The notes under the pieces are model-generated. The model saw nothing but the letters and a program-made list of their open reading frames with translations, was not told where the DNA came from and made no database searches. A program made the position numbers and the translations under genes. Positions 7,343 to 63,866 of a stretch of 64,000 bases of DNA are shown here, in pieces (position 1 is the first letter of the stretch; each line of letters starts with the position of its first letter). The stretch is taken from contig CAYLWC010000003.1 of assembly GCA_964387265.1 (NCBI GenBank), positions 43,468-107,467 on the forward strand. The letters run 5' to 3'. This DNA comes from an uncultured Vampirovibrionales bacterium. Lineage in GTDB: Bacteria > Cyanobacteriota > Vampirovibrionia > Vampirovibrionales > Vampirovibrionaceae.

Positions 7343-7612
7343 CCCGCTAAAACACACAACATGAATTCAGCGGCCTGAAGTAAGCGGGTCGCTGATTGGG
7401 CGAACTGAAACGGCTAGAGATGTCCCCTGGTGTCTTCCAGCTTATCCCGTTCATAGCGGGCATTTCTGCGTGTGGGTTTGAGGGTGGGATGGTAAGAAAA
7501 TAATTGTCTTTGTAAATAAATGTAAATATAAAAGGGATTTCGATCAAATATCCGAAGTATATATTTTTTATTTAAGCGTAGGGATGTTAAACAAAAAATG
7601 AGGGATAAAGGT

Positions 7613-10189
7613 ATGGCTATCAATTCGTCTTTTACGCTTTTAAACACTTTTCAAACCGGCAGTCTGATGCAATCTGCCAGCGCCGCCCAAACGGCTGCTT
7701 CTGTTTCTGTTGCCTCCGATGTGTTTGAGCTGAGCTCGGATCAACGTTGGGTGACCTGGAACAAGAACACCCGGCCCGACAAAATTGCTTATAAGGGCAA
7801 TATCTATGAGTATGAAAAAACCCAAGACGACGGGACGTTAAGATACTATGCGATTAATGCCAACAAATTACCGCAAGGGTCCCGCCGCCTGCGTATTAGC
7901 TTTACCGGTGATACCCGAAAAGCTGTGATTGGCTATGAAACCGAACGGGTCCAAGTAGGTACCGAGCAGGTTCAAATTGGGACCGAACAGGTTCAGGTCG
8001 GTACCAAGCAAGTCCAAACTGGAACCGAACTGGTCATTACCGGATATAACCAGGTTCAGACTGGAACCGAGCAGGTCCAGGTTGGAACCGAAAGTGTATT
8101 AACAGGTTATAAACAGGTTCAGGTCGGTACTGAGCAATTCCTGAAAGGGTATGAACAAGTTCAAGTAGGAACTGAGCAGGTTCAGGTAGGCACCGAGCAA
8201 GTGCAGGTGGGTACCGAACAGGTTCAAGTCGGTGAGCGCATTGTGGGTTATAACACCATCACCGAACAAGTTTCCCTTAAGCTCAGCCGCGAGCTGGATG
8301 GACGTGAAAACGCCGGTGCCATTGGGGATATGCTGAATCGAGGCACCCAACAGTTATCCGATGCCAATCAGTTCTTTTCAGGTGACAAGTTCAACATTTA
8401 CAAAGTCAGCAATTTGCTTGGCGAGGACAACCAGGCTATTTCCGGGGAAATCGACCCGCTGAGCGATATCAAATGCGCCGATGATATGTATGTGGCCGGG
8501 GATCCCCTGGTTGGCGGCAAGGGCAATAATTATGCCCCCGTGGATGTGAACCCGCAAACCGGTTACCTGACCATGTTTGAGGATGGCGCGGACAATGGAC
8601 GCAAAATTACGATTAACGCCCATGCCGATATTATCAACCCGGACGGCAACAAGGCCTTTACGGAATACGGGTTCGTGATTCAGGATGATAACCTGGAGAA
8701 AACCAAGGCGGTGTTATCCGGTGGGAAGCTGACCATTACCGCACCGAATGGCCAAACCCGGACCTTGCTGCCTGGTGAAGAGTATGTGATAGGCAATAGC
8801 GCCGACCCAACCGCCAAGTTCTACTATGCCAGTGTACCGGGCGGGGAAAATGGTGCCAACGAGCAACGTCTGATTTTTGAATCCTATGAAAAGCCCAGCC
8901 AGGCTGTGATTGATGAACTGGTGGCGAAAGGTATGGACCCCGTCCAGGCTGCGGCTTACCGGGCTAAAACCCAAGCTAGCTTTGGCTTCCGAGTGCCGGA
9001 TGGTCAGGGTTCCTACAGAATGTCTGCCGGGGTGGGCGCAGGAAACGCCTTATCAACCACCTCAAATGGTGTAAAAACATACTACGACGCTCACTTTAAC
9101 GAAGCCAACTGTCAGGATATCTGCTTTGACAAAGTGACCTACGAGCCGATTAAAGAGCCGGTATACGAAAACCGCCCGATCTATGGCGAACGTCCGGTAT
9201 ACGAACAGCGCCCTGTATACGAGAACCGTCCGATCTATGGCGAACGTCCAGTGTACGAACAGCGCCCTGTGTACGAGAACCGTCCGGTGTATGAAGATCG
9301 CCCGGTTTATGAGCAATGCCCCGTCTACGAAGAGCGGCCGGTATATGAAGATCGCCCGATTTATGAGCAATGCCCCATCTACGAAGAGCGGCCGGTGTAT
9401 GAAGAGTGTCCGATTTATGAAGAGCGGCCCATCTACAAAGAAAAGCCCGTCTATGAAGATCGCCAGAAGCCAATTTACGGGAAAGAATATAAAATTAAGC
9501 CCTCATTGGCCTCCCCGCTGGTCCTGGATCTGGATGGCGACGGCATCACCACCACCGATGTAAGCAAAGTGATTGATATTGATGGTGATGGCATCTTGGA
9601 TAAGTCGGCCTGGTTTGGTCCTCGTGAAGGGGTCCTGGCCTTCGACGCCAACCGGAATGGTCGGATTGACCTCAACGGCCTGGAACTCTTTGGGAACCAC
9701 AGTGACGTTGATGGTGATGGAAAACCTGATAACCACGAGAACGGTTTTGATGCCCTGAAGGCCTTTGCGGCCCGTCATCTGGGCCAGGCAGCCGTAGCCG
9801 ATAACCAACTGGATGCCGCTGAACTTCAGGCCCTGGAAAACCAAGCCGGTCTGCGGATGGTTGTAGGCAACCAGGTGCACAAGGTTTCCAGCTTCGGTAT
9901 TAACCAGATCAACCTGAATTATCAGGAAACCAACATTCAGGATCAGTTTGGGAACGAAACCCGTCAGGTATCCAGCTTCAAGCGGACCCTGAGCAACGGC
10001 CAGACTGTTACCCGGGATATCAATGATATCTGGTTGGTTAACACCCCAATGGATACCCAGCCACAGTCTGTGAATAAGCCTGCTCAGAGCCGGGCTCCCC
10101 AGCAACAACAGCCGATGGCTTTCGGGAACCTCTTCCAGCAGTTGTTTAATCTGTTCCAGCAATTGTTGATGCAGATGTCCCGGATGTAA
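7613..10189 (+). CDS. Large repeat-containing, probably secreted/surface calcium-binding protein (VQVGTEQ heptads, RPVYE hexads, DxDGDG loops, Gln-rich C-terminus)
   Basis: ATG at 7613 after a GAGGGA RBS and a 270 bp AT-rich leader. Tandem 21 bp and 18 bp DNA repeats encode the peptide repeats. Three DLDGDG/DIDGDG/DVDGDG motifs. Confidence 0.75.
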   Translation: MAINSSFTLLNTFQTGSLMQSASAAQTAASVSVASDVFELSSDQRWVTWNKNTRPDKIAYKGNIYEYEKTQDDGTLRYYAINANKLPQGSRRLRISFTGDTRKAVIGYETERVQVGTEQVQIGTEQVQVGTKQVQTGTELVITGYNQVQTGTEQVQVGTESVLTGYKQVQVGTEQFLKGYEQVQVGTEQVQVGTEQVQVGTEQVQVGERIVGYNTITEQVSLKLSRELDGRENAGAIGDMLNRGTQQLSDANQFFSGDKFNIYKVSNLLGEDNQAISGEIDPLSDIKCADDMYVAGDPLVGGKGNNYAPVDVNPQTGYLTMFEDGADNGRKITINAHADIINPDGNKAFTEYGFVIQDDNLEKTKAVLSGGKLTITAPNGQTRTLLPGEEYVIGNSADPTAKFYYASVPGGENGANEQRLIFESYEKPSQAVIDELVAKGMDPVQAAAYRAKTQASFGFRVPDGQGSYRMSAGVGAGNALSTTSNGVKTYYDAHFNEANCQDICFDKVTYEPIKEPVYENRPIYGERPVYEQRPVYENRPIYGERPVYEQRPVYENRPVYEDRPVYEQCPVYEERPVYEDRPIYEQCPIYEERPVYEECPIYEERPIYKEKPVYEDRQKPIYGKEYKIKPSLASPLVLDLDGDGITTTDVSKVIDIDGDGILDKSAWFGPREGVLAFDANRNGRIDLNGLELFGNHSDVDGDGKPDNHENGFDALKAFAARHLGQAAVADNQLDAAELQALENQAGLRMVVGNQVHKVSSFGINQINLNYQETNIQDQFGNETRQVSSFKRTLSNGQTVTRDINDIWLVNTPMDTQPQSVNKPAQSRAPQQQQPMAFGNLFQQLFNLFQQLLMQMSRM

Positions 10190-10216: not shown

Positions 10217-10252
10217 TGATACGGTGGTGCTTCGGCGCCACCGTTTTAATCT
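10217..10252 (+). terminator. Intrinsic terminator after the repeat-protein gene
   Basis: ACGGTGGTGC-TTCG-GCGCCACCGT hairpin followed by TTTTAATCT. Confidence 0.55.
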
Positions 10253-11385
10253 GTGGGCTTTATAGAAGACGAGATCATTTGTCCCGCTGCCTGTTCCAGC
10301 GTGCCAATGGCTTCCTGATAACTGCTGAGGGCTTGATCATACTTTTTCCGAAGTTCCAGGCGCATCAGAAGATCTTGATGGGTAAAAGACGTTTTTTTGG
10401 CTTGAGCAGACGCAAACAGGAACGGTTGATATTGCGCCATGATCTGCTGCTGAACCTCCAATTGCTTCAGGGCTTGTCGAATCTCAAGTTCCCTCTGGCG
10501 TTCCTGGGATTGACGAGCAGTCTGTAATTGGGCTTGCCGTGTTTTGGCGGCCCGTATTTCTCCTTGTTGCCGGTTAAACAAGGGAATTTCCATGGCGGCG
10601 ATGATAAAGGCATTGATATCAGTGGTATCACCAAAGACCATGTCCGGCCCGGCAGCCAGTATTAAATTGGGGATGCGTTCCGCCTGGGCGGCTTTGACTT
10701 CCGCTTCCGCCAGCCGAAGTGTCAGGGGTTTTGCAGGACGCCCAGCAACTGTAAAGTCAGCCTTGGAGTAAATATCAACTGGCGGATGGAGAAGCTGCCA
10801 CGGTGTCTCCAGGGGCTGGCCCAGCAGATAGTTTAACTGATACTGGGCCTGCTCGGCGTCTGTCTGGGACAGGAGATATTGCCGGTTCAGTTCCGCAAGC
10901 TGCAGTTTTTCTTTTACTGTCTGTACTGTATGGGGCAAAGATGGGGGATGCGTTTTAAACTGTTGAAAAACCAGAAGGCGTTGCTGAGCAATGTAGAGTT
11001 GGGTATAGGCCCGGCGAACCTGATGTCGAATTGTGAGTTGATGCTGTTGGTGGGCGTGTTGGGCTTGCTCTTTTTTAATCTGGGCGATTTCAAGGCGATG
11101 CTTTCGTTTTCCTCCCAGGGGGATGGTTTGTTCAATGCCGATTCGATAGGTGTCTTCCGCAATTCCGTTGTCACTGAGCAAAACAGGATTGGGAAAGGCT
11201 TTGGCTTTCAGGATTTCAGCGTCTGCAATGGCGGTATCAAAGTGGGTCATTTCTAAATCCGGGTTGTGCAATAAGGCCAGCTGAAACGCCCGCTCCAGGC
11301 TGAGCGGTTGTTGAGCGTACCCAGTTGAGGCCCCCCACAGAAGACATAGTAGCATGCATGTAAATAGCATAGATCCGTGTTTCAC
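10246..11385 (-). CDS. Outer membrane efflux protein (TolC/OEP family)
   Basis: Signal peptide, ERAFQLALLHNPDL OEP signature, coiled-coil-rich alpha-barrel repeats. Confidence 0.8.
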   Translation of the reverse strand: MKHGSMLFTCMLLCLLWGASTGYAQQPLSLERAFQLALLHNPDLEMTHFDTAIADAEILKAKAFPNPVLLSDNGIAEDTYRIGIEQTIPLGGKRKHRLEIAQIKKEQAQHAHQQHQLTIRHQVRRAYTQLYIAQQRLLVFQQFKTHPPSLPHTVQTVKEKLQLAELNRQYLLSQTDAEQAQYQLNYLLGQPLETPWQLLHPPVDIYSKADFTVAGRPAKPLTLRLAEAEVKAAQAERIPNLILAAGPDMVFGDTTDINAFIIAAMEIPLFNRQQGEIRAAKTRQAQLQTARQSQERQRELEIRQALKQLEVQQQIMAQYQPFLFASAQAKKTSFTHQDLLMRLELRKKYDQALSSYQEAIGTLEQAAGQMISSSIKPTD

Positions 11386-17562: not shown

Positions 17563-18228
17563 CTAATCGGCTATCTGGCTTAAGTGTTTTCGATCCAGCA
17601 CATGGACCCGACTGCCCTCCACTTTAATAAGCCCTTCGCCGCTGAGTTTTTTAAACGATCTGGACAGCGTTTCGGGAATGGTGCCCAAAATGGCGGCCAG
17701 CGTTTTCTTCTGGATTTTAATCACCGCTTTATCAGGTGAGTTCTCACTGACGGAAAGCAGGTACTTGGCCAGCCGGGAATCGACGCTTCGGAGGGAAAGA
17801 TCTTCGATGAGCCCGCTAAACTTATGGAGCCGTTGGGCAAACACGCTGAGCATGTTCAAGGCAATATCCGGGTGCATTTTAACGAGCTGTTGAAAGCCAG
17901 ACCCCTGAATAGCCAAAATTTTGGTGGGCTGCGTACACAGGGCATTGGCAGGATATCTCGGAATCCCGCTAAAGATCGGGACTTCTGCAAAAATCTCGCC
18001 TGGCCCAAACAAGTGCAAGATCATCTCCTTGCCTTCTCGCGAGATTTTATAAATCTGCACCTGCCCCTCCAGCACGATATAAAAAGACGTTGCCTCCTCG
18101 CCTTCCCCAAAGATCATTTCTCCCGATTCATACTGGTGAGCGGAACTGACGCGTGCCAGTTGTTCCAATTGTTCAGGGGTGAGCAGGCGAAAGTAAAGCT
18201 GTCGTTTGAGCAGGTCTTGAATAGTCAT
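17563..18228 (-). CDS. Crp/Fnr family transcriptional regulator
   Basis: N-terminal cNMP-binding beta-barrel (IFGEGEEATSFYIVLEGQV). C-terminal HTH (TLAAILGTIPETLSRSFKKL). Confidence 0.85.
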   Translation of the reverse strand: MTIQDLLKRQLYFRLLTPEQLEQLARVSSAHQYESGEMIFGEGEEATSFYIVLEGQVQIYKISREGKEMILHLFGPGEIFAEVPIFSGIPRYPANALCTQPTKILAIQGSGFQQLVKMHPDIALNMLSVFAQRLHKFSGLIEDLSLRSVDSRLAKYLLSVSENSPDKAVIKIQKKTLAAILGTIPETLSRSFKKLSGEGLIKVEGSRVHVLDRKHLSQIAD

Positions 18229-27165: not shown

Positions 27166-28176
27166 GTGATGAGGTGTATATCCATGTGGCGTCTAATCTC
27201 CTGCGGGCTTGCACTATTGGTGCTGGTCTCCCTGAACCTTACGGCCCAAAGCCAAGATAATGCGTACTTTCCTTCTGACAACTTTTTCCGTAGCCGGAAT
27301 ACATTGCCTGACTCCCAGTTGGATTTTACCGATGACACGCAGGAATCCTGTTGCGCCGATGACGCGCCAGTTGTAGACCCCAACGCCCCCACTGGATCCT
27401 CGTTTAAAGCGGAGAACCCCTCGTACACCGATTACGGCAACGATCCCAAGCTGGTGGAATGCGAAAAAATGCAGGGCTTATCGGCTGTGGGGCAAATGGG
27501 GGAAGCGCCGGTTCAGGTGAATGTGGCCCATAACCTGCCTATTAAATCCAACAGCACCAACGTGTCTGTGAAGAAAAAAGCGGAGTTTTATACCGACCCC
27601 CGTCGGAACCTGACGACCAGCTTCCATATTTCTACCCAGGGTGGGGCCAGTCTGGTGCAACTACAAGATGTGACCCATTACTCAGTGTGTATGGGCCGGG
27701 GCGGAAACAGTCTCCGGGTTCATAATACCGATAATGGCTCGATCTTGACTTATAACGGGAATGATCATGTGGTTCTTGGAGGAAACAACACCAACATGCT
27801 CACCCGAACCGGGGCTGGGGATGACGTCATTGAAATAGCCCAGACTGTGACGCAACCTAGTGGTTGGAAAGCCAATAGCATGTTTAAAACCGCGATCAGC
27901 GGGAGTGATGGTGTGGATACTCTGGTAATTAACGCCACACCTCCCGGAACCAAGTGGTGTCATATCGGGGGATACACCCTGTTTGGTGAGTACTTTTACG
28001 TGGTGGAATTCGCATTGCCTCCCAGCGCAACGGAAGGCCCCCGTCGCCAGAGGATGAGCATTGGCCAATCCGTGGAGTATGTGGTTTTTAAGGGTCGGAA
28101 ATATGCGACCCGAGAGTTTTTAGCCCATGGAACGCCCTTTGAGGTTGCCGGGTTCTTCAGTGACCGGAGTTTCTAG
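27166..28176 (+). CDS. Secreted hypothetical protein
   Basis: Signal peptide (LISCGLALLVLVSLNLTAQS). Thr/Gly/Asn-rich beta-type sequence. No assignable domain. Confidence 0.5.
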   Translation: MMRCISMWRLISCGLALLVLVSLNLTAQSQDNAYFPSDNFFRSRNTLPDSQLDFTDDTQESCCADDAPVVDPNAPTGSSFKAENPSYTDYGNDPKLVECEKMQGLSAVGQMGEAPVQVNVAHNLPIKSNSTNVSVKKKAEFYTDPRRNLTTSFHISTQGGASLVQLQDVTHYSVCMGRGGNSLRVHNTDNGSILTYNGNDHVVLGGNNTNMLTRTGAGDDVIEIAQTVTQPSGWKANSMFKTAISGSDGVDTLVINATPPGTKWCHIGGYTLFGEYFYVVEFALPPSATEGPRRQRMSIGQSVEYVVFKGRKYATREFLAHGTPFEVAGFFSDRSF

Positions 28177-30701
28177 CGCGCGGTCTTATTCAGGGCTTTG
28201 CTTGATTTTGCGCTTTGCAAGCCGTCCAGTCCGTAAATTTGAATCGGTTCGCTGAAACCCTTGATGTTGGTTTTTCCCAAATCACGGACTTCGCTCCACT
28301 CCTGAACGCTCAGGTAGGTGTTTTCGCTGATGATAATATCGGCATCGACGTGACGGGTGAGGGTTTCCAGACGAGAGCCCAAGTTGACCGAAGAGCCCAT
28401 GACCGTAAAGTTCTTAATGTCATCGGAGCCAAAGTTGCCAACAAACATGGTGCCTGTACTGATGCCAATCCCATGCTTGAGCTGAGGTTTCCCTTCTTTG
28501 GCCCATTTTTGGTTTAATTCATCAAGCGCCAGTTGCATTTCAAGGGCAGCCCGGCAAGCCATTTCCGCATGGTTGGGCATGGCCGTGGGGGCGCCAAAGA
28601 AGGCCATCAGGGCATCCCCCATGTATTTGTCGTATGTTCCGCCATTTCGAAGTACTGCTTTGGTCATGGCGTTAAAGTACTCGTTGAGCTGCTGTACAAT
28701 CAGCTCAGGCTCGGCGTTTTCAAATTGGGGGGTAAAATTATGAATGTCTGAAAACAAGACCGTAAGTTCTTTTCGGGCCCCGTTCAGGTCGCTCATGGCG
28801 GTATTGGGATTATCCAGAATCTGATCCATAAGCTGGGGAGAAACGTACTTTGAAAAGATATTGGTGAGCAGACGTTTTTCCCGGTCCTGAATGTAATAAC
28901 GGTAGACCAATCCGCCCATTAGAGAAAAGCCAAAAAACAGGGTTGGCCAGATGAGTGGGATCCAGAGCGCTTCCAGATCAAAAATCATAAAGTTATAAAG
29001 CCAGAACAGGATGGCTCCGGCCAGGCCTGCAATCAATCCTAAATACAGCCGTGGGATAAAGACAACGGAATAGACAATAAAGCACGATACGGCTAAGACA
29101 ATGGCAAGCGTGAGCAGAAATGGGGACTTTTGAACAAACTTTTGATCATGTAAAAACATATCCATCACCGTGGCCATGTATTCCGGTCCATAGGTGATGC
29201 TGCCCATAGGGGTTCGGTGAATATCTTTGACCGTTTCTCCATAGATGACGATCTTGCCCTTCAAAGATAACATGCCGCTTTCCGGGACACCGGGAATGCG
29301 ATACAGAGAGGGGGTAAAGTTATTGGGGCTATCCATCTTGACCAGGATATCCTTGACGGAGATAAATCGATATAGATGGCCGTAGCCCAGCTGGCTGTTA
29401 GCCGTATCAGAGCGGATGGATGAGAATTCCTCATAACTCAGGGGGAGTCCCGCCTCTTCAAATTGTTTCTTGACAAGCAGCGCCGGGTTCCGCCAATTGA
29501 CGATGACATTACGACCATCCACCAGGTTGATTTGCCGTTCTCCCAGGTAAAGCGATTGAGGCGTGTATCGAAAAGGCGGGTTCCCTAAAATATCCAGCAC
29601 CGGGCTTATGGGCAACATAGAGAAAAACTGGCCGTTATAGGACTTATAAAAGACCGGGACCTTACGCAAGTAGGCATCCTCGTCATAGTCAATGGAGGAA
29701 ATACCAAAGCCCTTGGCATGTTGGATAAACCGGGTTTCAAGCGGGTTGATCCAGCAATAACTGAAGTTGTTTTCCGCTTCCAGGGTTGGGAGCTCCTGAA
29801 AATAAAATGGAATGGCGCTTCTGCTGATCAGATCCAGATACTTCGGCTGATCGCTATACATGGCTTGATACATTTTCTGAAGGCAGATTTTACCGTAGCC
29901 TTCCACCAGCGGATTATTTTCTGCGCTGAACATGACCTGTTGAGGACTGGAAGGCCGATACAGTAACGTATCTGGAGGCATTTGCGTTCGACACAGGCTG
30001 GACCAGATGTCCCGAAGGTTTCCAGGGCTCAGGGGCATGGTGAATTCCACGATAGAATAGGGCTGCTCCAGGCCCAACGTGTTGTATCCCATCTGGCAAC
30101 CCGGACCCATTTTCTGGAACAGTCTGGCCTGGGTCTTGAGGAAGGGGAAAAAGTATTCGCTGAAGATCGCATGCCGAAAATTGGTAATGACCCTGCCTTG
30201 ATCCGTGGTGTTTTGTTGAGCGAGAAAGTCCTTCATTTTGAGGCTGACCGGACTGGAAAGGTAGATGTTTCCCGCTTGCTGAATCACCTGCTCCAGCGGT
30301 GCGTCATTGTCCTCGCTTTGAGGCCAGGTTAATTCCACGTCCACCGCGATGGCCTTGACGCCTTGATCGGTCAGATACTGGAAAATCCGGGCCAGTTGTT
30401 TTCTGGGAAGGATGCGTCCGGTAATGCCGATTTCCGGGTGTCTGCCCACGTACTCATCTGTGGATTTGTCCAGGGCAACGACTACAATTTGATCGGAGGG
30501 TGTCAGATGGCTGGCGCGGTATCGGATGCGTTGATCCAGCAGCGCCAACTCCATGCGCTCAGCAATGGTTTGAATATTGTTGGAGTTGAGTCCAATGGTC
30601 AGGATGATCAGGCCGATAAAGCCCCATAGAAACAAGGGAAAGAACTTGAAAGCCACCAGGGGCTTTAGCCACTTCCGGCTTAAAAAACGTCGGATCTCCA
30701 T
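28173..30701 (-). CDS. CHASE2 sensor-containing class III adenylate/guanylate cyclase
   Basis: N-terminal TM, periplasmic CHASE2-like region, 3 to 4 TM, then a C-terminal cyclase homology domain (FSDIHNFT...YMGDALMAFFGAP...GIGISTGTMFVGNFGS). Confidence 0.85.
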   Translation of the reverse strand: MEIRRFLSRKWLKPLVAFKFFPLFLWGFIGLIILTIGLNSNNIQTIAERMELALLDQRIRYRASHLTPSDQIVVVALDKSTDEYVGRHPEIGITGRILPRKQLARIFQYLTDQGVKAIAVDVELTWPQSEDNDAPLEQVIQQAGNIYLSSPVSLKMKDFLAQQNTTDQGRVITNFRHAIFSEYFFPFLKTQARLFQKMGPGCQMGYNTLGLEQPYSIVEFTMPLSPGNLRDIWSSLCRTQMPPDTLLYRPSSPQQVMFSAENNPLVEGYGKICLQKMYQAMYSDQPKYLDLISRSAIPFYFQELPTLEAENNFSYCWINPLETRFIQHAKGFGISSIDYDEDAYLRKVPVFYKSYNGQFFSMLPISPVLDILGNPPFRYTPQSLYLGERQINLVDGRNVIVNWRNPALLVKKQFEEAGLPLSYEEFSSIRSDTANSQLGYGHLYRFISVKDILVKMDSPNNFTPSLYRIPGVPESGMLSLKGKIVIYGETVKDIHRTPMGSITYGPEYMATVMDMFLHDQKFVQKSPFLLTLAIVLAVSCFIVYSVVFIPRLYLGLIAGLAGAILFWLYNFMIFDLEALWIPLIWPTLFFGFSLMGGLVYRYYIQDREKRLLTNIFSKYVSPQLMDQILDNPNTAMSDLNGARKELTVLFSDIHNFTPQFENAEPELIVQQLNEYFNAMTKAVLRNGGTYDKYMGDALMAFFGAPTAMPNHAEMACRAALEMQLALDELNQKWAKEGKPQLKHGIGISTGTMFVGNFGSDDIKNFTVMGSSVNLGSRLETLTRHVDADIIISENTYLSVQEWSEVRDLGKTNIKGFSEPIQIYGLDGLQSAKSSKALNKTAR

Positions 30702-35326: not shown

Positions 35327-37360
35327 TTACGGGGTGACTGAAGGGGTGTTTTTCAGAGTGTGCCGATAATGCTCCAGCTTCCTCACCAAATCGGGATGGT
35401 GTTGAAGCACATCCGGCCTCTTGGCCTTCAAGGCGGTTAACAGAACTTCAGGAAGGTTGAGAGCTTCATTTCGGGTTAATTTTTCAAAGTAGTCCTGTTC
35501 AAACGTGTTGGATAGACGGAGTGACCAGTTTTGATCGCCGCCTGTTCCCGGCTTGTTGTATGTTTCCCGAATCCCGAAGAAGTCCGGGAAAAAGATTTGT
35601 ACGTGTTGGGAGGGGCTGGCAAAGAGTTCAGCCAGCTTTGCGACCAGAAAGCGGTGGGAATCTTGAAGCAGAGACTGTATGAAATTACCACGGGCATTTA
35701 CATCCGGCTCCAGATCTTCGGCTAGGTATTGGGCATGGGTTTGAGCCTGGCCGTTTTGCCATAGCCGATCGATCCAGTTTCTCAGGGGCTCATTATCATG
35801 GGTTCCCGCCATAACCCAATGCTTGGCCGGGACATTTTTTCCCCGATACAAATGATCCGGCTTCTGGGGATCCACAAACTGGGTTACGCGAACTCCGCTT
35901 AAATCCAGCTGTTCCAAGACCGCCTTGACCGGGTTGGTCAGGGTACCCAAGTCCTCACAGATAATGGCGTCTTTATCCAGTCCTTGTGCCTGGGCAGCCG
36001 CGATGACAATGTTCAGCAGATCTCCGTAACGCTGAACCTGCTCCGGGGTAAGGTGCTGGACTCGACGCTCATCATCCGGCCCGACGGCATGATTGAGGTT
36101 GCTCGGGTCAATTTTGCTGAAGGGATGAAGGTCTGGGTGTTCAGGGGACGAGAACAATCTGCCCGCGCCGGATTCCGGTCGGGGAGACTGCCCGGCACGA
36201 TAGACCCAAGGGTCGATAAGACCAATAATATGATCAATTCGCACACCGCCTGGATTTTCCAGAAAGATTTTCTCAAAAAGGGTTTTGAGCAATTCGCCAG
36301 CGGGACCGAGGCTGCCATCCGGCTGAAATAGCTTGGCAGGATCTAACACCGGGAAGCCCCACGCTTGCCCGTCTTGAGAAAAATAATCCGGGGGAGCCCC
36401 TAGCTTATAGCCGTCCAGAAACAACGCCTGGTAGGCCCAAACATCCCGATCGGAAAAGGCAACCTGACGATCGGCAATAAGATTCATGCCTGTCTGTCGG
36501 GCAAAAGCTTTCATCTCTTCTTTCTGAGCAAAGGCGATAAACTGGCAGAACTCGTAGAAGGCGATATCATCGGCATGTTGTGTCTTGATTTCCTGAATTC
36601 GGGCTTGAGTGGCCTGTTCTTCCTGGGCATTGCTAGGACTGTACAGGCGTTTATCCAGCTCACTGGGCCAGATGGGCCAGTAGTCGTTTTGGTGGTGAAT
36701 CGAAAGCGCCTCATACAGGCTATCCCGTTCCAGCCAGGCTTGGTTTTTCAGCCGGAACGCCTGGAAGTCGCGCTCCAGTTTATTAAGTGCGTCCACGTCC
36801 GTTTGGGGTAAGCGTTGCAAGTTCTGGCGCTTTTGCTGATAGGTCTGGAAGGATTCTCGTAACGCCCGTTCCTGCGCTCGGTAGATATAGCCGTAAGCGG
36901 TCCGAGGCTTACCGGCGTGGGGTGGCTGTTGGGGGGTATTGCGGACAATGTCATCCAGGGTCTGGGTACTTAAAATCCCAGCCCATTTGGGGTCATTCGC
37001 CAACATGGCCAGATCCACAAACAGAGGGTTGTTGGAAAAGGAGGTGCTAGTATAGGGGGAAGCGTCAATGGCCTTGGTTTTTCCTCCTGGACCTAGCTGA
37101 ACACTGTTAAATCCCATGGTTTTCAGAAAGTTAAACAGGCGTTTGGCCCCCTTTGAATTGGGGGAACCGATGCCGGTGTCTTCCCCCGGCTCTGACGGGA
37201 AGCTGGCCCCATGGATGATCATGGCCAGGTTCTTTTTACCCAGCAGACTTAAGGTGTCCTCAATGGTTTTTTGATACTCGCTCAGCTCGTTGGGTTGTAA
37301 GGCCCGGCCGAATTTTGCTTCGGGGGAGGTGGCTGAAATAGAGCTTGGGGTCGATGACAT
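35327..37360 (-). CDS. malQ: 4-alpha-glucanotransferase (amylomaltase, GH77)
   Basis: IHGASFPS...GIGSP N-terminal signature and GH77 catalytic blocks. Start placed at ATG 37360 with a CAGGAGCC RBS. Confidence 0.85.
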   Translation of the reverse strand: MSSTPSSISATSPEAKFGRALQPNELSEYQKTIEDTLSLLGKKNLAMIIHGASFPSEPGEDTGIGSPNSKGAKRLFNFLKTMGFNSVQLGPGGKTKAIDASPYTSTSFSNNPLFVDLAMLANDPKWAGILSTQTLDDIVRNTPQQPPHAGKPRTAYGYIYRAQERALRESFQTYQQKRQNLQRLPQTDVDALNKLERDFQAFRLKNQAWLERDSLYEALSIHHQNDYWPIWPSELDKRLYSPSNAQEEQATQARIQEIKTQHADDIAFYEFCQFIAFAQKEEMKAFARQTGMNLIADRQVAFSDRDVWAYQALFLDGYKLGAPPDYFSQDGQAWGFPVLDPAKLFQPDGSLGPAGELLKTLFEKIFLENPGGVRIDHIIGLIDPWVYRAGQSPRPESGAGRLFSSPEHPDLHPFSKIDPSNLNHAVGPDDERRVQHLTPEQVQRYGDLLNIVIAAAQAQGLDKDAIICEDLGTLTNPVKAVLEQLDLSGVRVTQFVDPQKPDHLYRGKNVPAKHWVMAGTHDNEPLRNWIDRLWQNGQAQTHAQYLAEDLEPDVNARGNFIQSLLQDSHRFLVAKLAELFASPSQHVQIFFPDFFGIRETYNKPGTGGDQNWSLRLSNTFEQDYFEKLTRNEALNLPEVLLTALKAKRPDVLQHHPDLVRKLEHYRHTLKNTPSVTP

Positions 37361-37428
37361 GGCAGGGCTCCTGAATATGGGGGGCAACGGTGATGTTAGC
37401 ATTGGTTTAATTTTTCTCTGTAATTACC

Positions 37429-41828: not shown

Positions 41829-44800
41829 CTAGGGGTAGCTGGGCAGATAACTTGGCAGGTAGGGGGTGTCAATTTCAAAGAGGTGGAAACGGCCTGGCCC
41901 CAGGTCTACCTTCAATTGGTTTTCACCACGGATAAAGTGACTGGAGCGGCCGTACGGCAAGGATAAATCTTTCAAGGATTGAGTCTGACGGAACCCTGGA
42001 ATATGAAGGGTATTGCTATGACGAGCATTTACATCTTTATTGGCAACCACCAGCAAAGTTTTACCATTGAGATGTCGGGCGAAAGCAATGATCTGGTTGT
42101 TTTCCGCGTTTTGTACCGGGACGGGGATAAACAGACCTTTGCTCAGAACATCCTGGTACTGTTTCCGGGTAGATAACATATGCTTGAGGAAGATTCCAAT
42201 TTCTGGATGGTTTCCTTTCGGGCGCTTGGCGAAGTTAAAAATGTCGAAATGTCCTGAAAAACCTGTTGTAAAACCATCTAAAATATAAGGGTTGGTCAAG
42301 GGCTGCGTTGCCATTAGGCCCGAGGCGAGGAAGGACATAGTGGTGCCTCCATTGGTCATCAGGGCCGGATCATCATGGGTGAGGAAGGAGCCGATAAAGG
42401 ATTTTCCGCTCCCTGCCCGGTTAAACATCTGATAGCCATCTTTCAGGTATTGCATATACTCATTGGCGTTGCGCATCTTATGGAAGATGTGGAATTGGCC
42501 ATAGATGGAATCAAACCCACTTTTCAGCAGTCCTTCCGGGACGTCCCGGGGGATATTTTCCATGGGGGAGGCGTCCTCCTCGGTGTAGCTTTCAGCCAGC
42601 CACCCCAGGTGTGGGTACTTGCTTGTAAAGTGTTGCCAGAACCACAGGGGCCGAGCGCGGGCTACATCGACCCGAAAGCCATCCACTCCGACTTTATTGA
42701 CCATCAAGTCAAAAAAGTCTGCATAGTATTTCACCAGGGCCGGGTTGGTTTCAAACATGGCAATATCAATCCAGTTGGCCGGCGTTTTCAGGTTTCCGTT
42801 TCGATCCCTGGCAATCAGGTCCGGGCGGGCTTGGGCCAGATCAATGGAGGCGCAACTGGGGACATCTGCCATCACATGAATCCCTCGCTTATGCGCTTCC
42901 TGAACAAAAATACGGGCTTCATCCAGAACACTGAGCCTATTCCCTGGTGTATCATATTCTGGGTTGAGTTCCAGGTATGAGGCCGGGGCATAGACACTAC
43001 CCGCTTCCCCGAGACGTTTTTGATCTCCAGGTGGGTGGATGGGAAGAAGGTGAATAGTATTCACGCCCAGGTCTTTCAGTTCATCCAGTTTGGAAATGGC
43101 CGAGAGAAACGACCCGCTTTCCCCATGGTTAAATGAGATACGGCCATCGTTATTCTTGTCTTCGGCGCCAAACGTCCGAAGATGCAAAGCGTAGATAACG
43201 GCCTGGTTATTTTTAAAGAGATTTTTGAGTTGGTTTTGCCACGGATAAGGCGGACGTGGGGGCATGGACTGCATAACCGGCGTAGGCTGTATGACCCGGC
43301 TTGCGGGCTGGGAGGGATAAGATCCGTAATAAGGTCTATAATAAGGGTTTATTCCAATTCCAGGAGTGGTTGTAAACGGTCGTTGCGGAATGGCGCTAGG
43401 CTGACTCCAGCCAAACTTGGGCTGTGATGTTGGCGGAGGAGTGGCGGCGGGTTGATTTGTGGCGGGTTTTGGCGCCCCACGACGGCCCACGAAAAATTGG
43501 GTATACAACATGGTTGCCAGTAGCATGCCACCACCCAGATAGCCAATAATTCTTTTTTGCCAGAGTGTTCTGAGTTTGGTGTCTTTGAGGGCGCTCAGCA
43601 AATGCTGGCTTGGGGAAGCGCCCAGTCGGTTAAAGGCTTTGCCAAACTGGCCCTGGTTAATCAATTGGCGGGCTTCCTGGTATAACTGCTCGTTACCCGC
43701 CAGTTTCTTGGCTTGTTCCACTTGCCCCTTTTCTACCAGGCTTTGGATCTCTGGTAGCCCAGGCTTATCCATTAGCGCCTTGAGTGTTTGAACAGTGGGT
43801 TTACCCTTATCAAGTTCTTGGAGAAGAGCCTCGTAATGGCTGACCGTTGCCCTGGCGTTTGTGATTCGCTCTTCAATCAGTTGTTGTGCATTGGCGTGTA
43901 TTGACTTATCCAGCTGAATCCCCTGTTTTTTGAGAAGTACAGACGCTTCTTCGGATAAATGGCTCAGGAAAACCCGTTGTTTTTTTAGGTATTGTTGCAG
44001 CTCCTGACGCCGAGAAGCCTGCTCAGCTTGCCCCAGGGTTTCAAAGTGGCTCAAAAGCGTTTTCTTTTGTTCATGAGCCGGGGCGTTGACAATATCCTGT
44101 ATACTAAACGCAGTATTAAGGCCGGTTTTATTAACCATGTTGACCCCAAAACCTTTCCACCATTGGGAAATCTTGGAGTTTGGAATCTCTCCCACCAGCT
44201 GCCTGACATGGTGTTGGACGTGGTGGGTGAGTTTTTGAGGATCCCGGGTATGGGAGGCCCGGAAAAAGTGGTACATGGTATTCATCCGGTTTAAAAGGTG
44301 GATTGTCGGTTGTTGTAATTGGTCACAAAGTAGCCCTGAAATCACTGGTGTGGCAGGGCCTGCAACCAACATCCACCAGGTCTTGGACTGGGTGGCAATT
44401 TCCCGAATGCGTTCTTCCGTAATTTCTCGGCGGTTGGGGAGATGGCGAGGTATTTTCAGTTTGTCAGCGATACGAATAATCTCATAATCTGGTATCAGGT
44501 GCAGGGGGAGGTACTTGGGATCCTTGTAGAGATTATGTCGTTCCTTGTTGGTGTTGATATAGTCTTGATTCAGGTTCACGCCGGTACGACCCCGAACCAG
44601 TCCATTAATAATTTTGGGGGTGGCGGCCATGGCGCCAAACCAACTTAGAAAACCCAGATATTCCCCAACGCCAAAGACGCGCCGAGTCAGGCCAAACGTT
44701 GCCAGGGTCGCTATGCCCAGACCGGCTCCTCTCTTCAGATTATCATCCAGGATGGCCAGATTGTTATCGCTGATGGGCTTTGGGCCAATGTCGGTTAGCG

Positions 44801-44909
44801 TGGAGGCCACGCGGAGCTGCGTACTGGCAAAATCCTTGAACGTTTTGGGTGGGGCCAGGTGAGCATAGGGAGGAGACACGTTACTTTGGGAGGAGGTCAG
44901 GAAGGTCAT
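41829..44909 (-). CDS. Membrane-anchored GH13 alpha-amylase fused to an uncharacterised N-terminal (about 470 aa) domain
   Basis: C-terminal GH13 catalytic domain with GVDGFRVDVA (nucleophile), WLAESYTEE (acid/base) and FLTHDDP. TM helix IIGYLGGGMLLATMLY and a Pro-rich linker. The N-domain is homologous to the upstream 351 aa protein. Confidence 0.8.
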   Translation of the reverse strand: MTFLTSSQSNVSPPYAHLAPPKTFKDFASTQLRVASTLTDIGPKPISDNNLAILDDNLKRGAGLGIATLATFGLTRRVFGVGEYLGFLSWFGAMAATPKIINGLVRGRTGVNLNQDYINTNKERHNLYKDPKYLPLHLIPDYEIIRIADKLKIPRHLPNRREITEERIREIATQSKTWWMLVAGPATPVISGLLCDQLQQPTIHLLNRMNTMYHFFRASHTRDPQKLTHHVQHHVRQLVGEIPNSKISQWWKGFGVNMVNKTGLNTAFSIQDIVNAPAHEQKKTLLSHFETLGQAEQASRRQELQQYLKKQRVFLSHLSEEASVLLKKQGIQLDKSIHANAQQLIEERITNARATVSHYEALLQELDKGKPTVQTLKALMDKPGLPEIQSLVEKGQVEQAKKLAGNEQLYQEARQLINQGQFGKAFNRLGASPSQHLLSALKDTKLRTLWQKRIIGYLGGGMLLATMLYTQFFVGRRGAPKPATNQPAATPPPTSQPKFGWSQPSAIPQRPFTTTPGIGINPYYRPYYGSYPSQPASRVIQPTPVMQSMPPRPPYPWQNQLKNLFKNNQAVIYALHLRTFGAEDKNNDGRISFNHGESGSFLSAISKLDELKDLGVNTIHLLPIHPPGDQKRLGEAGSVYAPASYLELNPEYDTPGNRLSVLDEARIFVQEAHKRGIHVMADVPSCASIDLAQARPDLIARDRNGNLKTPANWIDIAMFETNPALVKYYADFFDLMVNKVGVDGFRVDVARARPLWFWQHFTSKYPHLGWLAESYTEEDASPMENIPRDVPEGLLKSGFDSIYGQFHIFHKMRNANEYMQYLKDGYQMFNRAGSGKSFIGSFLTHDDPALMTNGGTTMSFLASGLMATQPLTNPYILDGFTTGFSGHFDIFNFAKRPKGNHPEIGIFLKHMLSTRKQYQDVLSKGLFIPVPVQNAENNQIIAFARHLNGKTLLVVANKDVNARHSNTLHIPGFRQTQSLKDLSLPYGRSSHFIRGENQLKVDLGPGRFHLFEIDTPYLPSYLPSYP

Positions 44910-50466: not shown

Positions 50467-51807
50467 ATGGCACAAGGCACCATGGTGGATTCCATCACCT
50501 CAACGACCGCCGAATCGACGTACGGCTCGCAGAAGGCAACGACCGCTGTTCGTCGGATGTCGATGCTCCAGCTCTTGAATTTAAGTATCGGCTTTTTGGG
50601 CATTCAGTTTGCCTGGGCCATCCAGATGGGACAGATGAGCCCGTTATTAGAGCGCTTGGGCTCTGACCCCCAGTGGATTGGGATTATCTCCTGCGCGGGC
50701 CCTGTGACCGGGGTGCTGGTTCAGCCGATTATCGGGTCCTTGAGTGATCAATCCAAAATTGCCTTTGGCCGCCGTCGCCCCTTCTTGCTGGCCGGAATGA
50801 TCTGTACGATTTTAAGCTTGATCCTGATGCCCAACTCCACCGAACTCTGGATGGCCGCGGTGCTACTCTGGATTCTGGATGCCAGCATCAACGTTTCTCA
50901 AGGCCCCTACCGGGCGATGATTTCCGATGTGGTGCCGAAAGCCCAGCAAGCGACGGCCTTTTCTCTCACCAGCCTGACTATTGGGCTGGGGTCAGTCATT
51001 GCTTTCCTCATTGGCTTTGCCATTAACTCTATGCACAACCTGTTTTATTTGGGGGCCAGCGCCATGCTGGTGGCCATGATGTGGACGATTTTAACCACCA
51101 AGGAAGAAAACCCCAAGCTGCTGGCGCTCAGCGGGGAGCAGGCCACGGAATCTACCGGGAATTTCTTTATCAACATGTTTAAAGGCATTTTCTCGATGCC
51201 GAAAGAAGGCTTAAAGCTCTGCCTGGCCCATAGCTTTACCTGGTTCGGCCTGATGTGCCTGTTTGTCTTTTTCTCGGTCTACGTGCCTCATCATGTCTTT
51301 GGCGCCGCCGATTCCAGTAGCGAGCTGTATCAGAAGGCCGTTCAGTGGGGGTCTATCTGTTATGCCGTCTTGAACGCCGTATGCTTTCTCTTCTCTTTCG
51401 CCATCAGCAAGCTCTGCGCCCTGACTTCCAAAAAAGCGGTCCATACGTTCGGTTTGCTGTGTATGGCTGGCAGCATGCTGGGGATGTTTTATATTTCTAC
51501 CCCAGAGATGGCAATGGTCCTGATGGGCCTGATGGGGATTGGCTGGGCGACATCGCTCTCGATTCCCTTTGCCCTGCTCTCGGAGCATATCCCCAACGGC
51601 AAAGAAGGGGTGTTGCAAGGGACCTTTAATATCTTTGTGGCCGCCCCTGGGGTGATTAGCAGTCTGGTTGTAGGGAACATCGTTCAGGCCTATGACGGCA
51701 ACTATGCGGTGGCCATGGTGATTGGCGGAGGCTCCATGCTGGTGGCGGCGCTGCTCCTGCAATTTGTCAAGGAAGCCCGTCAGGAAAAAGCCCCACTTAT
51801 CGCCTAG
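50467..51807 (+). CDS. MFS transporter of the GPH/sucrose-transporter (SLC45/SUT-like) family
   Basis: LLNLSIGFLGIQFAWAIQ...GPVTGVLVQPIIGSLSDQ...FGRRRPFLLAG closely parallels plant SUT and SLC45 N-terminal motifs. 12 TM. Confidence 0.8.
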   Translation: MAQGTMVDSITSTTAESTYGSQKATTAVRRMSMLQLLNLSIGFLGIQFAWAIQMGQMSPLLERLGSDPQWIGIISCAGPVTGVLVQPIIGSLSDQSKIAFGRRRPFLLAGMICTILSLILMPNSTELWMAAVLLWILDASINVSQGPYRAMISDVVPKAQQATAFSLTSLTIGLGSVIAFLIGFAINSMHNLFYLGASAMLVAMMWTILTTKEENPKLLALSGEQATESTGNFFINMFKGIFSMPKEGLKLCLAHSFTWFGLMCLFVFFSVYVPHHVFGAADSSSELYQKAVQWGSICYAVLNAVCFLFSFAISKLCALTSKKAVHTFGLLCMAGSMLGMFYISTPEMAMVLMGLMGIGWATSLSIPFALLSEHIPNGKEGVLQGTFNIFVAAPGVISSLVVGNIVQAYDGNYAVAMVIGGGSMLVAALLLQFVKEARQEKAPLIA

Positions 51808-63778: not shown

Positions 63779-63866
63779 GGGTTTTATGATAGCCAAGGCC
63801 AGCAGTAGAGTAAAGCGCAAGCGTAAAACATAAACTTTTTGTTACCCCCACGTCCGGCTTGAATGG

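Follow-up and report, generated by a model that had tools for sequence, protein, structure and literature searches.

Matched heptad and hexad repeat arrays, a predicted VWD-like middle domain and a Ser-Pro SPM-like domain in a single protein of an uncultured Vampirovibrionales bacterium

The window analyzed here, a stretch of 64,000 nucleotides from an uncultured Vampirovibrionales bacterium (contig CAYLWC010000003.1), carries on its forward strand a gene for an 858-residue protein. Its features are as follows, with positions counted from the first nucleotide of the window.

7490..7612, forward strand: AT-rich leader that includes the ribosome-binding site GAGGGA (7600-7605); GC 0.35-0.375 against ~0.51 for the whole window
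7613..10189, forward strand: coding sequence of the 858-aa protein, stop codon included
7613..7717, forward strand: disordered polar N-terminus (MAINSS..., aa 1-35, pLDDT ~23), a candidate non-Sec export signal
7718..7921, forward strand: small beta-rich N-terminal domain (aa 36-103, four strands, pLDDT 53-78)
7922..8263, forward strand: heptad array, consensus VQVGTEQ, ~14-16 units (aa 104-217; Tandem Repeats Finder and in-register reading)
8264..9145, forward strand: family-defining middle domain (aa 218-511), a short helical subdomain followed by a predicted VWD-like beta sandwich
8498..8506, forward strand: invariant Gly-Asp-Pro (G296-D297-P298) at the start of the VWD-like sandwich (alignments A1 and A3)
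9146..9487, forward strand: hexad array, consensus RP(V/I)YE(E/Q/D/N), ~17-18 units (aa 512-625), three of them with Cys for Arg
9512..10048, forward strand: SPM-like domain, predicted to bind calcium (aa 634-812; phmmer, Foldseek, PF26745)
9512-9517, forward strand: S634-P635 junction at the start of the SPM-like domain (LAS/PLVLDLDGDG, the slash marking the junction)
10049..10186, forward strand: disordered Pro/Gln-rich linker, then an amphipathic Q/L/M/F helix at aa 840-856 (aa 813-858; AlphaFold2)
10221..10254, forward strand: terminator-like hairpin with T-rich tail, common to the convergent OEP gene

The open reading frame (7598..10189, forward strand) spans 863 residues; a start at the ATG at 7613, which GAGGGA precedes and which agrees with the M-x-I-N beginning of the family, gives 858. 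An identical protein, P0001, is known from one 125.9-kb contig only. Of the 270-bp AT-rich leader reported in the first-pass annotation, the length holds (intergenic 7343-7612), but marked AT-richness is confined to approximately 7490-7600, and a promoter scan of the forward strand returned nothing above chance. The terminator also reported there was found as a hairpin at 10221-10244 with a 10-bp stem containing seven G-C pairs, followed by TTTAATCTGT; it lies between the gene and the adjoining one, a solitary convergent TolC-like OEP gene (10246-11385). The gene has its own AT-rich leader and a terminator, as first reported, and is its own transcription unit.

Residues 1-35 contain no Lys or Arg, no basic n-region and no hydrophobic h-region, and are modeled by AlphaFold2 as disordered, in agreement with the earlier statement that no Sec signal is obvious. 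A family N-terminal motif, M-x-[IV]-N-(N/S/T)-N, recurs across paralog groups. The small N-terminal domain (aa 36-103) is kept in groups G1 and G2, with P55 and Y78 as conserved columns. At the other end, the Gln-rich tail, FGNLFQQLFNLFQQLLMQMSRM, is present as described, and equivalent tails occur on G1, G2 and G3 paralogs. As a general sorting tag it found no support among 437 ORFs in 404 kb of Vampirovibrionales DNA, a small and biased sample in which only family members carry it. Nor did the C-terminal 350 residues, for which a search for T1SS or T9SS secretion signals had been suggested, return anything from NCBIfam except a spurious transaldolase match (E 0.028), and the whole protein gave nothing above cut-off in Pfam and NCBIfam. 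RTX nonapeptide repeats (GGxGxDxUx) are absent from the protein, both as HemolysinCabind matches and by regular expression, and the window has no gene for an ABC transporter or membrane-fusion protein, only the solitary OEP gene. The protein is probably exported by a non-Sec route.

Two different short tandem repeats had been described in the protein, and both arrays were recovered by Tandem Repeats Finder and by in-register reading. In the DNA, the heptads appear as 21-bp (also 42- and 63-bp) arrays at 7939-8226 and the hexads as 18-bp arrays at 9158-9459, the latter with a 54-bp superperiod (83% matches). The approximately 13 heptads first counted correspond to 13 clean copies (aa 113-210), five of them exactly VQVGTEQ, with 2-3 degenerate units flanking them; the approximately 17 (E/D)RP(V/I)YE hexads, some with Cys for Arg, correspond to 17-18 units (aa 515-622) with Cys at C569, C587 and C599. 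Similarity of the heptads to known repeats is sub-threshold for LbR_Ice_bind (PF21300; E 7.6e-4, 20 bits against a cut-off of 30) and weak for the BpaC left-handed beta-roll (7o23; E 9.7e-4), while the hexads have a sub-threshold Pfam match to LED_rpt. In the AlphaFold2 monomer each array is a long hairpin folded on itself, with the heptads not paired with the hexads, at a pLDDT of 35-70. A PHROG search matches the hexads to phrog_5070 and phrog_7964, both of unknown function. Together with the occurrence of the repeat pair in P0059 and P0061, which have matches to tail-fibre or virion proteins, and in a Devosia carrier labelled Peptidase S74, this might suggest a phage tail-fibre-like gene or a prophage remnant. 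These PHROG matches, however, cover the repeats only, neither the window nor five related loci contain phage genes, all being housekeeping chromosome, and the GC of the gene equals that of the window. A phage origin was therefore rejected and seems scarcely conceivable.

At the DNA level the repeat units of this gene are old. Units of identical peptide sequence have a DNA identity of only ~0.80-0.83, and exact repeats reach at most 19-20 nt. This implies that the gene is not an obvious slipped-strand hotspot, contrary to the remark in the first-pass annotation that its units are prone to such change. The length variation predicted alongside is borne out among relatives: unit numbers run from 4 to ~49, and Vampirovibrio chlorellavorus sequences that are otherwise 99.9-100% identical are separated by clean indels of 15 heptad and 5 hexad units. 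Repeat number thus varies in the family, and the SPM match described below accounts for the last quarter of the protein only. It could be argued from this range, from the indels and from the exact DNA repeats of at least 59 nt in V. chlorellavorus that slipped-strand copy-number changes rapidly switch or tune the protein between strains, as at a contingency locus. But the low identity between units argues otherwise for the gene itself, every unit is a multiple of three, so that no frame switching would result, the V. chlorellavorus indels could be due to short-read assembly collapse, and a metagenome scan for strain-level relatives of the gene returned none. We consider such a role very improbable.

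The heptad and hexad arrays do not vary independently: they contain the same or nearly the same number of units, in a 1:1 relation. Among 23 Vampirovibrionales members, the spans of the two arrays correlate with r=0.93 (p=1e-10, with phylogeny ignored) at a ratio of 1.16, close to 7/6, and periodicity counts are equal in 11 of the 23 (permutation P<1e-4, kinship not taken into account). For these, a detector of G/7 and Y-F/6 periodicity was used, its counts being taken as unit counts, because autocorrelation split some Vampirovibrionales arrays, including the heptads of the protein under study. In 21 unrelated carriers from other phyla, for which the autocorrelation detector served, unit counts correlate with r=0.96 and a median ratio of 1.00, again in statistics that ignore phylogeny. 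The protein's own counts are roughly equal, at 13 and 16 or 16 and 18 depending on the detector. The arrays always enclose a domain or a short loop, and either order of heptads and hexads occurs. P0007 and P0009 (~4+4 units), P0064 (~6+6 units, around a short loop) and P0059 are naturally short members. On the strength of equal unit numbers across both relatives and unrelated carriers, we argue that the arrays pair, apparently forming a single stalk of variable length that is tipped by the VWD-like head. Since the heptad/hexad pair is also present in a dynamin-like GTPase, presumably cytoplasmic, the stalk alone is no sign of an extracellular location.

The domain enclosed by the arrays is predicted by a confident model (AlphaFold2 pLDDT 91.8, pTM 0.89) to have a divergent VWD-like fold. 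It contains an invariant Gly-Asp-Pro and is the conserved core of the family, being 45-67% identical over 28 aligned relatives. The first-pass annotation had overlooked it. The lead came only via structure prediction and Foldseek, in which the MUC2 and MUC5AC D assemblies are the top matches (prob 0.90-0.99, but E ~3e-3 and a query TM of only ~0.27). A PDB profile search with the middle-domain alignment returned nothing, and Pfam VWD (PF00094) does not match the protein at E<=1. By hhalign, the domain does align with the VWD module of the paralogs (E 6e-5, probability 65%), such that AGDP falls on WGDPH; that module in turn matches the VWD domains of FCGBP with an E-value of 3.5e-15. A-G-D-P is invariant in 28/28 aligned relatives, whereas the neighboring positions vary. 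The residue that follows is Leu in this protein, which therefore lacks the GDPH autocleavage motif; it is His in some orthologs and G, V, Q, E, I, F, K, T or W in other relatives. This raises the question of whether the working event is autocleavage at D297-P298, as at the GDPH sites of mucins, FCGBP and RGM, which would leave two associated fragments with either a stabilized domain or a reactive anhydride and is compatible with a stalk. The invariance of A-G-D-P, the full GDPH of some orthologs and the location of the motif between the first and second sandwich strands, as in VWD domains (PMC10880436), all point in this direction. However, His is not conserved, an H-to-N mutant of FCGBP D10 remains uncleaved (PMC10880436), Pfam VWD does not match this protein, and the fold match is weak in TM terms. 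Cleavage at this site is possible, if unlikely.

The SPM-like domain is homologous to the self-processing module of FrpC. A phmmer comparison with FrpC SPM (6sjw_A) gives an E-value of 2.5e-10 over aa 635-799, the alignment beginning exactly at P635, the equivalent of FrpC P415. Foldseek against 6sjw/6sjx agrees (E 1.4e-8, prob 1.00, target TM 0.68, 29% identity), the domain is modeled at pLDDT 80-94, and PF26745 (SPM) is precomputed for P0001. The three DxDGDG loops noticed earlier are present (DLDGDG at aa 639-644, DIDGDG at 655-660 and DVDGDG at 697-702), but DANRNGRIDLNGLE, an EF-hand-like fourth loop whose counterpart in the alignment with FrpC is D462-E474, had been missed. Homology to FrpC upholds the calcium character of the loops and not their likeness to dockerin, thrombospondin type 3 or canonical EF-hand sites; Pfam and NCBIfam profiles of these kinds have no match at E<=1, and the loops are part of the SPM-fold domain. 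Kept from FrpC are the D419/D421/D423/G424 site, W451, the D462-E474 loop, L475/G477, G491 and the D579-equivalent. Lost are the D499-D511 and D521-E532 EF-hand-like loops and W519, so that of the four EF-hand-like sites of FrpC two are kept and two lost, with two new DxDGDG loops in this protein.

The scissile Asp-Pro of FrpC (D414-P415) is Ser-Pro here. FrpC clip-and-link chemistry requires the Asp side chain (PMC7078468), and cleavage is abolished in D414A (PMC7846742). With Ser in place of Asp no aspartic anhydride can form, which excludes FrpC-type clip-and-link. The junction is Ser-Pro in 9/9 close orthologs and Cys-Pro or Thr-Pro in two distant ones. Beyond the family, among the best 150 of 13,574 SPM-like matches, the residue before Pro is Ser in 117/150 nearest representatives, with Thr, Cys and Asp as rare alternatives. 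Judged by these alignments, Ser-Pro proves to be the usual junction in a subclass of C-terminal SPM-like domains that is large, non-RTX and so far undescribed; literature searches returned no publication on SPM domains with Ser-Pro, on the LED repeat or on the family of this protein.

Such conservation could mean that the domain is still self-processing, either through an N-to-O acyl shift by the Ser hydroxyl (Thr or Cys in relatives) under calcium strain or through water attack on a twisted amide, and the C-terminal domain would then shed a stalk-and-head passenger of 633 aa. Conservation at the junction residue almost equals that of the Pro, its rare replacements are all nucleophilic or competent for an acyl shift, the FrpC SPM fold is built to strain the junction bond (PMC7078468), and paralogs have genuine self-cleaving Asp-Pro modules in the corresponding position. 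But the five-membered anhydride of SPM chemistry is impossible with Ser, and the D414A mutant is dead (PMC7846742). An acyl shift, moreover, would break the bond before Ser and not Ser-Pro, no catalytic base is evident, and W519 and two of the four FrpC EF-hand-like sites are gone. Ser, Thr and Asp are also classic formers of Asx/ST-turns before Pro, which permits a purely structural reading. Self-processing of this domain is, in our view, distinctly improbable. Its extension to the whole Ser-Pro (rarely Thr/Cys-Pro) class, as a second, undescribed calcium-triggered self-processing module that releases a passenger outside the cell by a hydroxyl or thiol nucleophile, is likewise a long shot.

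Only Vampirovibrionales were found to have the family, at 2-3 paralogs per genome; V. chlorellavorus NCIMB 11383 is among the carriers. To our knowledge, Vampirovibrionales are the only predatory lineage among the cyanobacteria. The paralogs exchange calcium/Asp-Pro modules, having VWD-GDPH or MIIA (DUF1521) where this protein has the SPM-like module. For instance, DUF1521 (PF07481) occurs in P0018, P0019 and P0036, although its profile does not match the protein itself, and the paralog modules pass the Pfam cut-offs for DUF1521 and VWD (for VWD, 28.2 bits against 22.9). Such modules are known from secreted proteins that fold on calcium (PMC6506597). No paralog was detected within the window by tblastn with each part of the protein. 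Likewise, neither the window nor five related loci show a secretion system, chaperone or conserved partner beside the gene, and no synteny or operon partners are conserved over the five loci.

Taken at face value, the fact that over 40 family members lack any Sec or Tat signal would make this an intracellular scaffold or cytoskeleton-like protein, its calcium-type loops being relics. The lack of secretion genes nearby, the repeat pair in a dynamin-like GTPase and two paralog loci close to cell-wall or division genes (e.g. Mur ligases, SepF) agree with that. Nevertheless, SPM, VWD and MIIA modules are all known from exported proteins only, and the acidic loops are conserved under selection. In addition, the Ser-Pro-class SPM proteins, more than 100 in number, are mostly signal-less as well, which fits non-Sec export better than it fits 100 cytoplasmic calcium proteins. 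An intracellular role is therefore quite unlikely. Tentatively, and with slightly less than even confidence, we instead favor a modular non-Sec protein with a stalk-and-head build, probably exported to the surface or the exterior of a predatory Vampirovibrionales cell.

Such a surface protein might work as follows. In the low-calcium cytosol, the SPM-like domain would remain unfolded, and the chain, which has no signal peptide, would leave by a non-Sec route. A type-I-like route is the most economical guess, because a calcium-folding domain, a linker and a C-terminal amphipathic helix mirror type I substrates, although export through a flagellar type III or a type IV system is also conceivable. 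Outside, calcium would occupy the DLDGDG site, the EF-hand-like loop and probably the two extra DxDGDG loops, causing the SPM-like domain to fold and to act as a calcium-dependent folding or anchoring base without FrpC-type clip-and-link. Heptads and hexads would pair unit for unit into one beta-rich stalk, whose length would be fixed by the number of units (~16 in this protein, 4 to ~49 in relatives). The VWD-like domain would then sit at the distal tip, with the N-terminal domain, the SPM-like domain and the C-terminal helix together at the base. With its invariant Gly-Asp-Pro, the head would be the working end and would most likely bind prey or matrix, perhaps during attachment to algal prey. 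A calcium-stabilized surface or adhesion stalk is thus the function we infer, and its use for adhesion in predation is a conjecture. The pad by which V. chlorellavorus attaches to Chlorella is of unknown composition (PMC4451040), and the specificity of the family to Vampirovibrionales makes its members concrete candidates for that pad.

The domains assembled here are of known kinds, and the protein is a new variation on them. The SPM fold proves separable from clip-and-link chemistry, and the Ser-Pro class, apparently unexamined so far, bears on the purpose of SPM domains and on NeissLock-type engineering, for which it might offer natural uncleavable calcium switches. The 1:1 match of 7- and 6-residue repeats, which holds across phyla and from 4 to ~49 units, is a simple rule open to testing and points to an undescribed two-array beta stalk, possibly a molecular ruler.

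Compared with known systems, the closest relation is to the SPM of FrpC and ApxIVA (PF26745; 6sjw, 6sjx). For ~175 residues, counted from the shared Pro, sequence and fold are homologous; both modules have the DxDxDG calcium site at the N-terminal end, W451, one of the EF-hand-like loops and the Asp-hydrophobic strand at the C-terminal end, and by precedent the domain would be disordered without calcium. They differ in that Ser replaces Asp before the Pro, which precludes anhydride and isopeptide chemistry, in the loss of two EF-hand-like loops and W519, in the gain of two extra DxDGDG loops, and in context: here the domain lies near the C-terminus of a non-RTX protein, with no RTX repeats after it, in a predator of the cyanobacterial lineage. 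The middle domain shares with the VWD GDPH domains of FCGBP, MUC2, MUC5AC and RGM/hemojuvelin a predicted beta-sandwich match and a Gly-Asp-Pro between the first two strands, and paralogs of the same genomes contain a clear VWD module with WGDPH; unlike those domains, it lacks a Pfam VWD match, C8/TIL partners and a disulphide framework, has Leu for His and possesses an extra N-terminal helical subdomain. The MIIA/DUF1521 modules of the type III effectors NopE1/NopE2 and of VIC_001052 follow the same logic, with no Sec signal and a module that folds on calcium. In the paralogs MIIA takes the position of the hexads and SPM-like domain, but it is absent from this protein, and NopE1, NopE2 and VIC_001052 are exported by injectisomes, of which we know no report from Vampirovibrionales. 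By analogy, repeat-extended adhesins (trimeric autotransporters such as BpaC/YadA; RTX adhesins such as LapA/MpIBP) would share the head-on-stalk plan, the length-variable repeat extender and calcium-dependent folding outside the cell, and the heptads weakly resemble left-handed beta-roll repeats; the protein has no autotransporter anchor, Ig-like extender domains or RTX block. Its stalk apparently consists of two distinct arrays within a single chain, with their units matched 1:1, an arrangement for which we know of no described precedent and for which literature searches likewise found none.

Tandem Repeats Finder and an in-register reading of the translation both recover the two repeat arrays reported in the first-pass annotation of the repeat-protein gene. 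ATG 7613, which lies within an ORF listed at 7598..10189 on the + strand, has the ribosome-binding-site-like GAGGGA ahead of it at 7600-7605, and the resulting MAINSS N-terminus agrees with the M-x-[IV]-N start in all relatives, so the 858-residue reading stands; the Gln-rich tail is likewise present in the translated ORF. The AT-rich leader proposed for the gene holds for positions ~7490-7600, where AT-richness is strong, but not for the rest of the upstream intergenic region. The features of the gene and its 3' flank are as follows.

7613-10189 (+), repeat-protein gene, 858 residues
7939-8226, 21-bp arrays with superperiods of 42 and 63 bp (Tandem Repeats Finder)
9158-9459, 18-bp arrays with a superperiod of 54 bp, 83% matches (Tandem Repeats Finder)
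9512-9517, codons of the Ser-Pro junction, S634-P635
10221-10244, hairpin with a 10-bp stem, 3' of the stop codon and common to the repeat-protein gene and the convergent gene
10246-11385 (-), convergent TolC-like OEP gene

The first array comprises 13 clean in-register heptads (aa 113-210), of which five read exactly VQVGTEQ, with degenerate units at its edges, and the second comprises 17-18 hexads of the form RP(V/I)YE(x) (aa 515-622), Cys replacing Arg in three; the array spans are 112 and 110 residues. ORFs of 100-126 aa over the hexad array (9062-9563, both strands, other frames) are not genes, being by-products of stop-free periodic sequence.

The two repeat types form a matched pair well beyond this gene: heptads and hexads are found together, in equal numbers of units, in otherwise unrelated proteins from outside the window (P0045-P0067). 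Devosia and Xanthobacteraceae proteins of 480-630 aa have hexads, a ~120-aa domain and then heptads, the reverse of the query order; a dynamin-like GTPase (P0064) has six heptads, a short loop and six hexads; and both types also occur in P0059 and P0061, which are virion or tail proteins of phage-like character. Among 23 Vampirovibrionales orthologs and paralogs, scored with a periodicity detector that needs no motif (Gly at 7-residue and Tyr/Phe at 6-residue spacing), the array spans correlate (r=0.93, p=1e-10, statistics that ignore phylogeny), and the median heptad/hexad span ratio is 1.16, near 7/6. Periodicity counts, a proxy for unit number, are equal in 11/23 of these sequences and within one in 15/23 (permutation control, P<1e-4), with pairs such as 4/4, 6/6, 9/9, 12/12, 16/16, 18/18, 28/28, 34/34, 40/40 and 48/49. 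An autocorrelation detector applied to non-Vampirovibrionales carriers (n=21) gives unit counts with r=0.96 and p=4e-12, again ignoring phylogeny, a median unit ratio of 1.00 and a mean absolute difference of 0.9 units. In the query, the counts are only roughly equal.

Because the arrays match in units and not in residues, this 1:1 stoichiometry argues for a layered structure with a shared axial step, one heptad and one hexad to each. Candidate arrangements are a stack of two beta meanders and a pair of beta rolls set side by side; a plain extended ribbon of two strands is the poorer fit. Since the arrays flank the core domain, their pairing would put this VWD-like domain at the tip, and the N-terminal domain, SPM-like domain and C-terminal helix would meet at the base. 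The AlphaFold2 monomer instead has each array folding on itself, at pLDDT 35-70. We infer with moderate confidence that the arrays form one stalk with a VWD-like head at its tip. A matched heptad/hexad stalk of this kind looks undescribed, and it reaches well past the query gene.

Unit number ranges from 4 to ~49 among relatives, which bears out the earlier suggestion of length variation at the level of the family. Three sequences of a paralog lacking the SPM-like domain in V. chlorellavorus (L026, P0013 and P0014) agree at 99.9-100% of aligned residues but are separated by clean in-register indels that amount to 15 heptads (105 aa) and 5 hexads (30 aa). The arrays of this species are assembled from super-repeats of 35 aa and 30 aa that are nearly identical, and exact repeats in their DNA reach at least 59 nt; the indels are either true polymorphism or a product of collapse in short-read assembly. 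The suggestion of slippage-prone units does not extend to the query, where DNA identity between identical peptide units is 0.80-0.83 and exact repeats extend to 19-20 nt at most; this divergence marks the arrays as old and kept by protein-level selection, not a hot slippage tract. A homolog search and metagenome scan found no strain-level relative of the query gene.

The family is restricted in lineage. Scanning a single genome for each species returned 27 loci, most bearing the labels Vampirovibrio, Vampirovibrionales or Melainabacteria, including V. chlorellavorus NCIMB 11383, and a few from assemblies with other cyanobacterial labels. Some genomes hold two or three paralogs. Common to the paralogs are the M-x-[IV]-N motif at the N-terminus and an amphipathic C-terminal tail of Q/L/M/F preceded by a linker rich in Pro, Thr and Ala; in a minority (P0025, P0026, P0032, P0041, L005 and L029), Lys/Arg-rich ends (e.g. 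KKTKKAKRRRRKTQTNK) replace this tail. The tail was not found outside the family in 404 kb of sampled DNA. In the window and in related loci, the gene stands alone amid housekeeping genes. Its sole suggestive neighbour is the convergent OEP gene, which is short (379 aa), shares the hairpin at 10221-10244, and has no adjoining ABC transporter or membrane-fusion partner. Elsewhere in the window, a cluster of glucan-active enzymes (35327-37402, 41829-44909, 46441-50397, 50467-51807, 52180-54333 and 62087-63820) includes a GH77 4-alpha-glucanotransferase, alpha-amylase-like ORFs of 1026 and 1318 aa, an MFS sugar transporter and a GH57 enzyme. A GH9 cellulase with a CelD_N domain is encoded as well, and these genes might bear on the use of algal starch and cell wall as food. 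A CHASE2-domain adenylate/guanylate cyclase (28173-30701, -) and a CRP-family cNMP-binding regulator (17563-18228, -) may together make up a circuit for sensing cyclic nucleotides.

With 67 homologs mapped by BLAST, the conserved core of the family falls at aa ~215-505 (45-67% identity), and the homologs comprise full-length proteins with the SPM-like domain (G1), proteins without it (G2), and proteins with the core at the N-terminus followed by a WGDPH module (G3). In an alignment of 28 sequences A-G-D-P is invariant, and the next residue varies (Leu in the query; His, Gly, Val, Gln, Glu, Ile, Phe, Lys, Thr or Trp in others). A PDB sequence search with the core returned no match. Its AlphaFold2 model is confident (pLDDT 91.8, pTM 0.89), and the top Foldseek matches, the same on repeat, are MUC2 and MUC5AC D assemblies at probability 0.90-0.99, but with E ~3e-3 and query TM 0.27. 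The paralog WGDPH module, which matches FCGBP at E 3.5e-15 and exceeds the Pfam DUF1521 and VWD cut-offs, is a bona fide VWD domain. Under hhalign the core AGDP falls on the paralog WGDPH (E 6e-5, probability 65%), and in the core model it sits between sandwich strands 1 and 2, as the GDP motif of VWD domains lies between the first two strands (PMC10880436). As the core has neither a VWD profile match nor the His, we label it VWD-like and do not claim VWD membership. Canonical GDPH cleavage is doubtful in the query, since D-to-N and H-to-N mutants of FCGBP D10 are uncleaved (PMC10880436).

The three DxDGDG loops noted earlier are present, although their likeness to dockerin or TSP3 sites gives way to a different assignment. 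Pfam and NCBIfam gave nothing above cut-off for the query protein, with no dockerin, TSP3, EF-hand, RTX or sorting domain. The alignment to FrpC begins precisely at P635 (FrpC P415), the domain is modelled at pLDDT 80-94, and Foldseek matches the full-length AlphaFold2 model to the FrpC self-processing module (6sjw) with E 1.4e-8, probability 1.00, target TM 0.68 and 29% identity; the precomputed Pfam label on the query and its orthologs is PF26745, named SPM. Alignment, model and label identify the loops as EF-hand-like sites of an SPM-fold domain, as follows.

DLDGDG, equivalent to FrpC D419/D421/D423/G424
DANRNGRIDLNGLE, equivalent to the FrpC D462-E474 loop and overlooked in the first-pass annotation
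DIDGDG and DVDGDG, extra loops relative to FrpC

The FrpC D499-D511 and D521-E532 loops and W519 are absent from the query. By analogy with SPM and MIIA, extracellular calcium would fold this domain, a proposal we hold with moderate confidence.

In FrpC, calcium-induced folding puts strain on the D414-P415 bond, and the anhydride that results from attack of the Asp carboxylate on its own carbonyl goes on to cross-link to a lysine (PMC7078468); D414A loses both cleavage and ligation (PMC7846742). The query junction reads LAS|PLVLDLDGDG, with Ser-Pro in 9/9 close orthologs and Cys-Pro and Thr-Pro in two distant relatives. An exhaustive profile search with the query module retrieved 13,574 representatives at a threshold of E<=1e-3. 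In the 150 best of these, the junction Pro is preceded by Ser in 117, by Asp in 7, by Pro in 2, by Thr in 1 and by Ala in 1, with 26 further representatives falling outside the pattern used; a few Asp-Pro members thus share a subfamily with the Ser class. In Ser-class proteins, which mostly have no Sec-type N-terminus, the SPM-like domain is usually the most C-terminal (median 181 residues from junction to stop), closes with a D-[IV]-W-[HF] motif (P0069-P0213), and is accompanied by RTX-like repeats in only 2/114. Named members come from Gastranaerophilales and from Veronia (Vibrionaceae), whose protein also bears the PF26745 label. The bolder reading would make the Ser class an acyl-shift variant of self-processing. 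More soberly, Ser, Thr and Asp would be interchangeable turn formers before Pro, and the class a non-clipping calcium-folding domain. We are moderately confident that the query domain does not clip and link. The Ser-Pro class, which no paper found in our literature search treats, looks undescribed and extends well past the query gene.

V. chlorellavorus holds Chlorella by an attachment pad of unknown composition and possesses flagella and a VirB/D4-type system (PMC4451040). The Lys/Arg-rich paralog tails recall the C-terminal signals of VirB/D4 substrates, which carry positive charge. For the query, non-Sec export seems probable, again at moderate confidence; more speculatively, the route would be type-I-like and the head would bind the prey surface during predatory attachment. 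Like RTX/SPM proteins, the query would fold outside the cell under calcium control, although it has neither Asp-Pro nor RTX repeats. With repeat-extended adhesins it would have in common a head borne on a stalk of variable length, yet it lacks an autotransporter anchor, and the head itself is similar to a VWD domain but without the profile match or the His.
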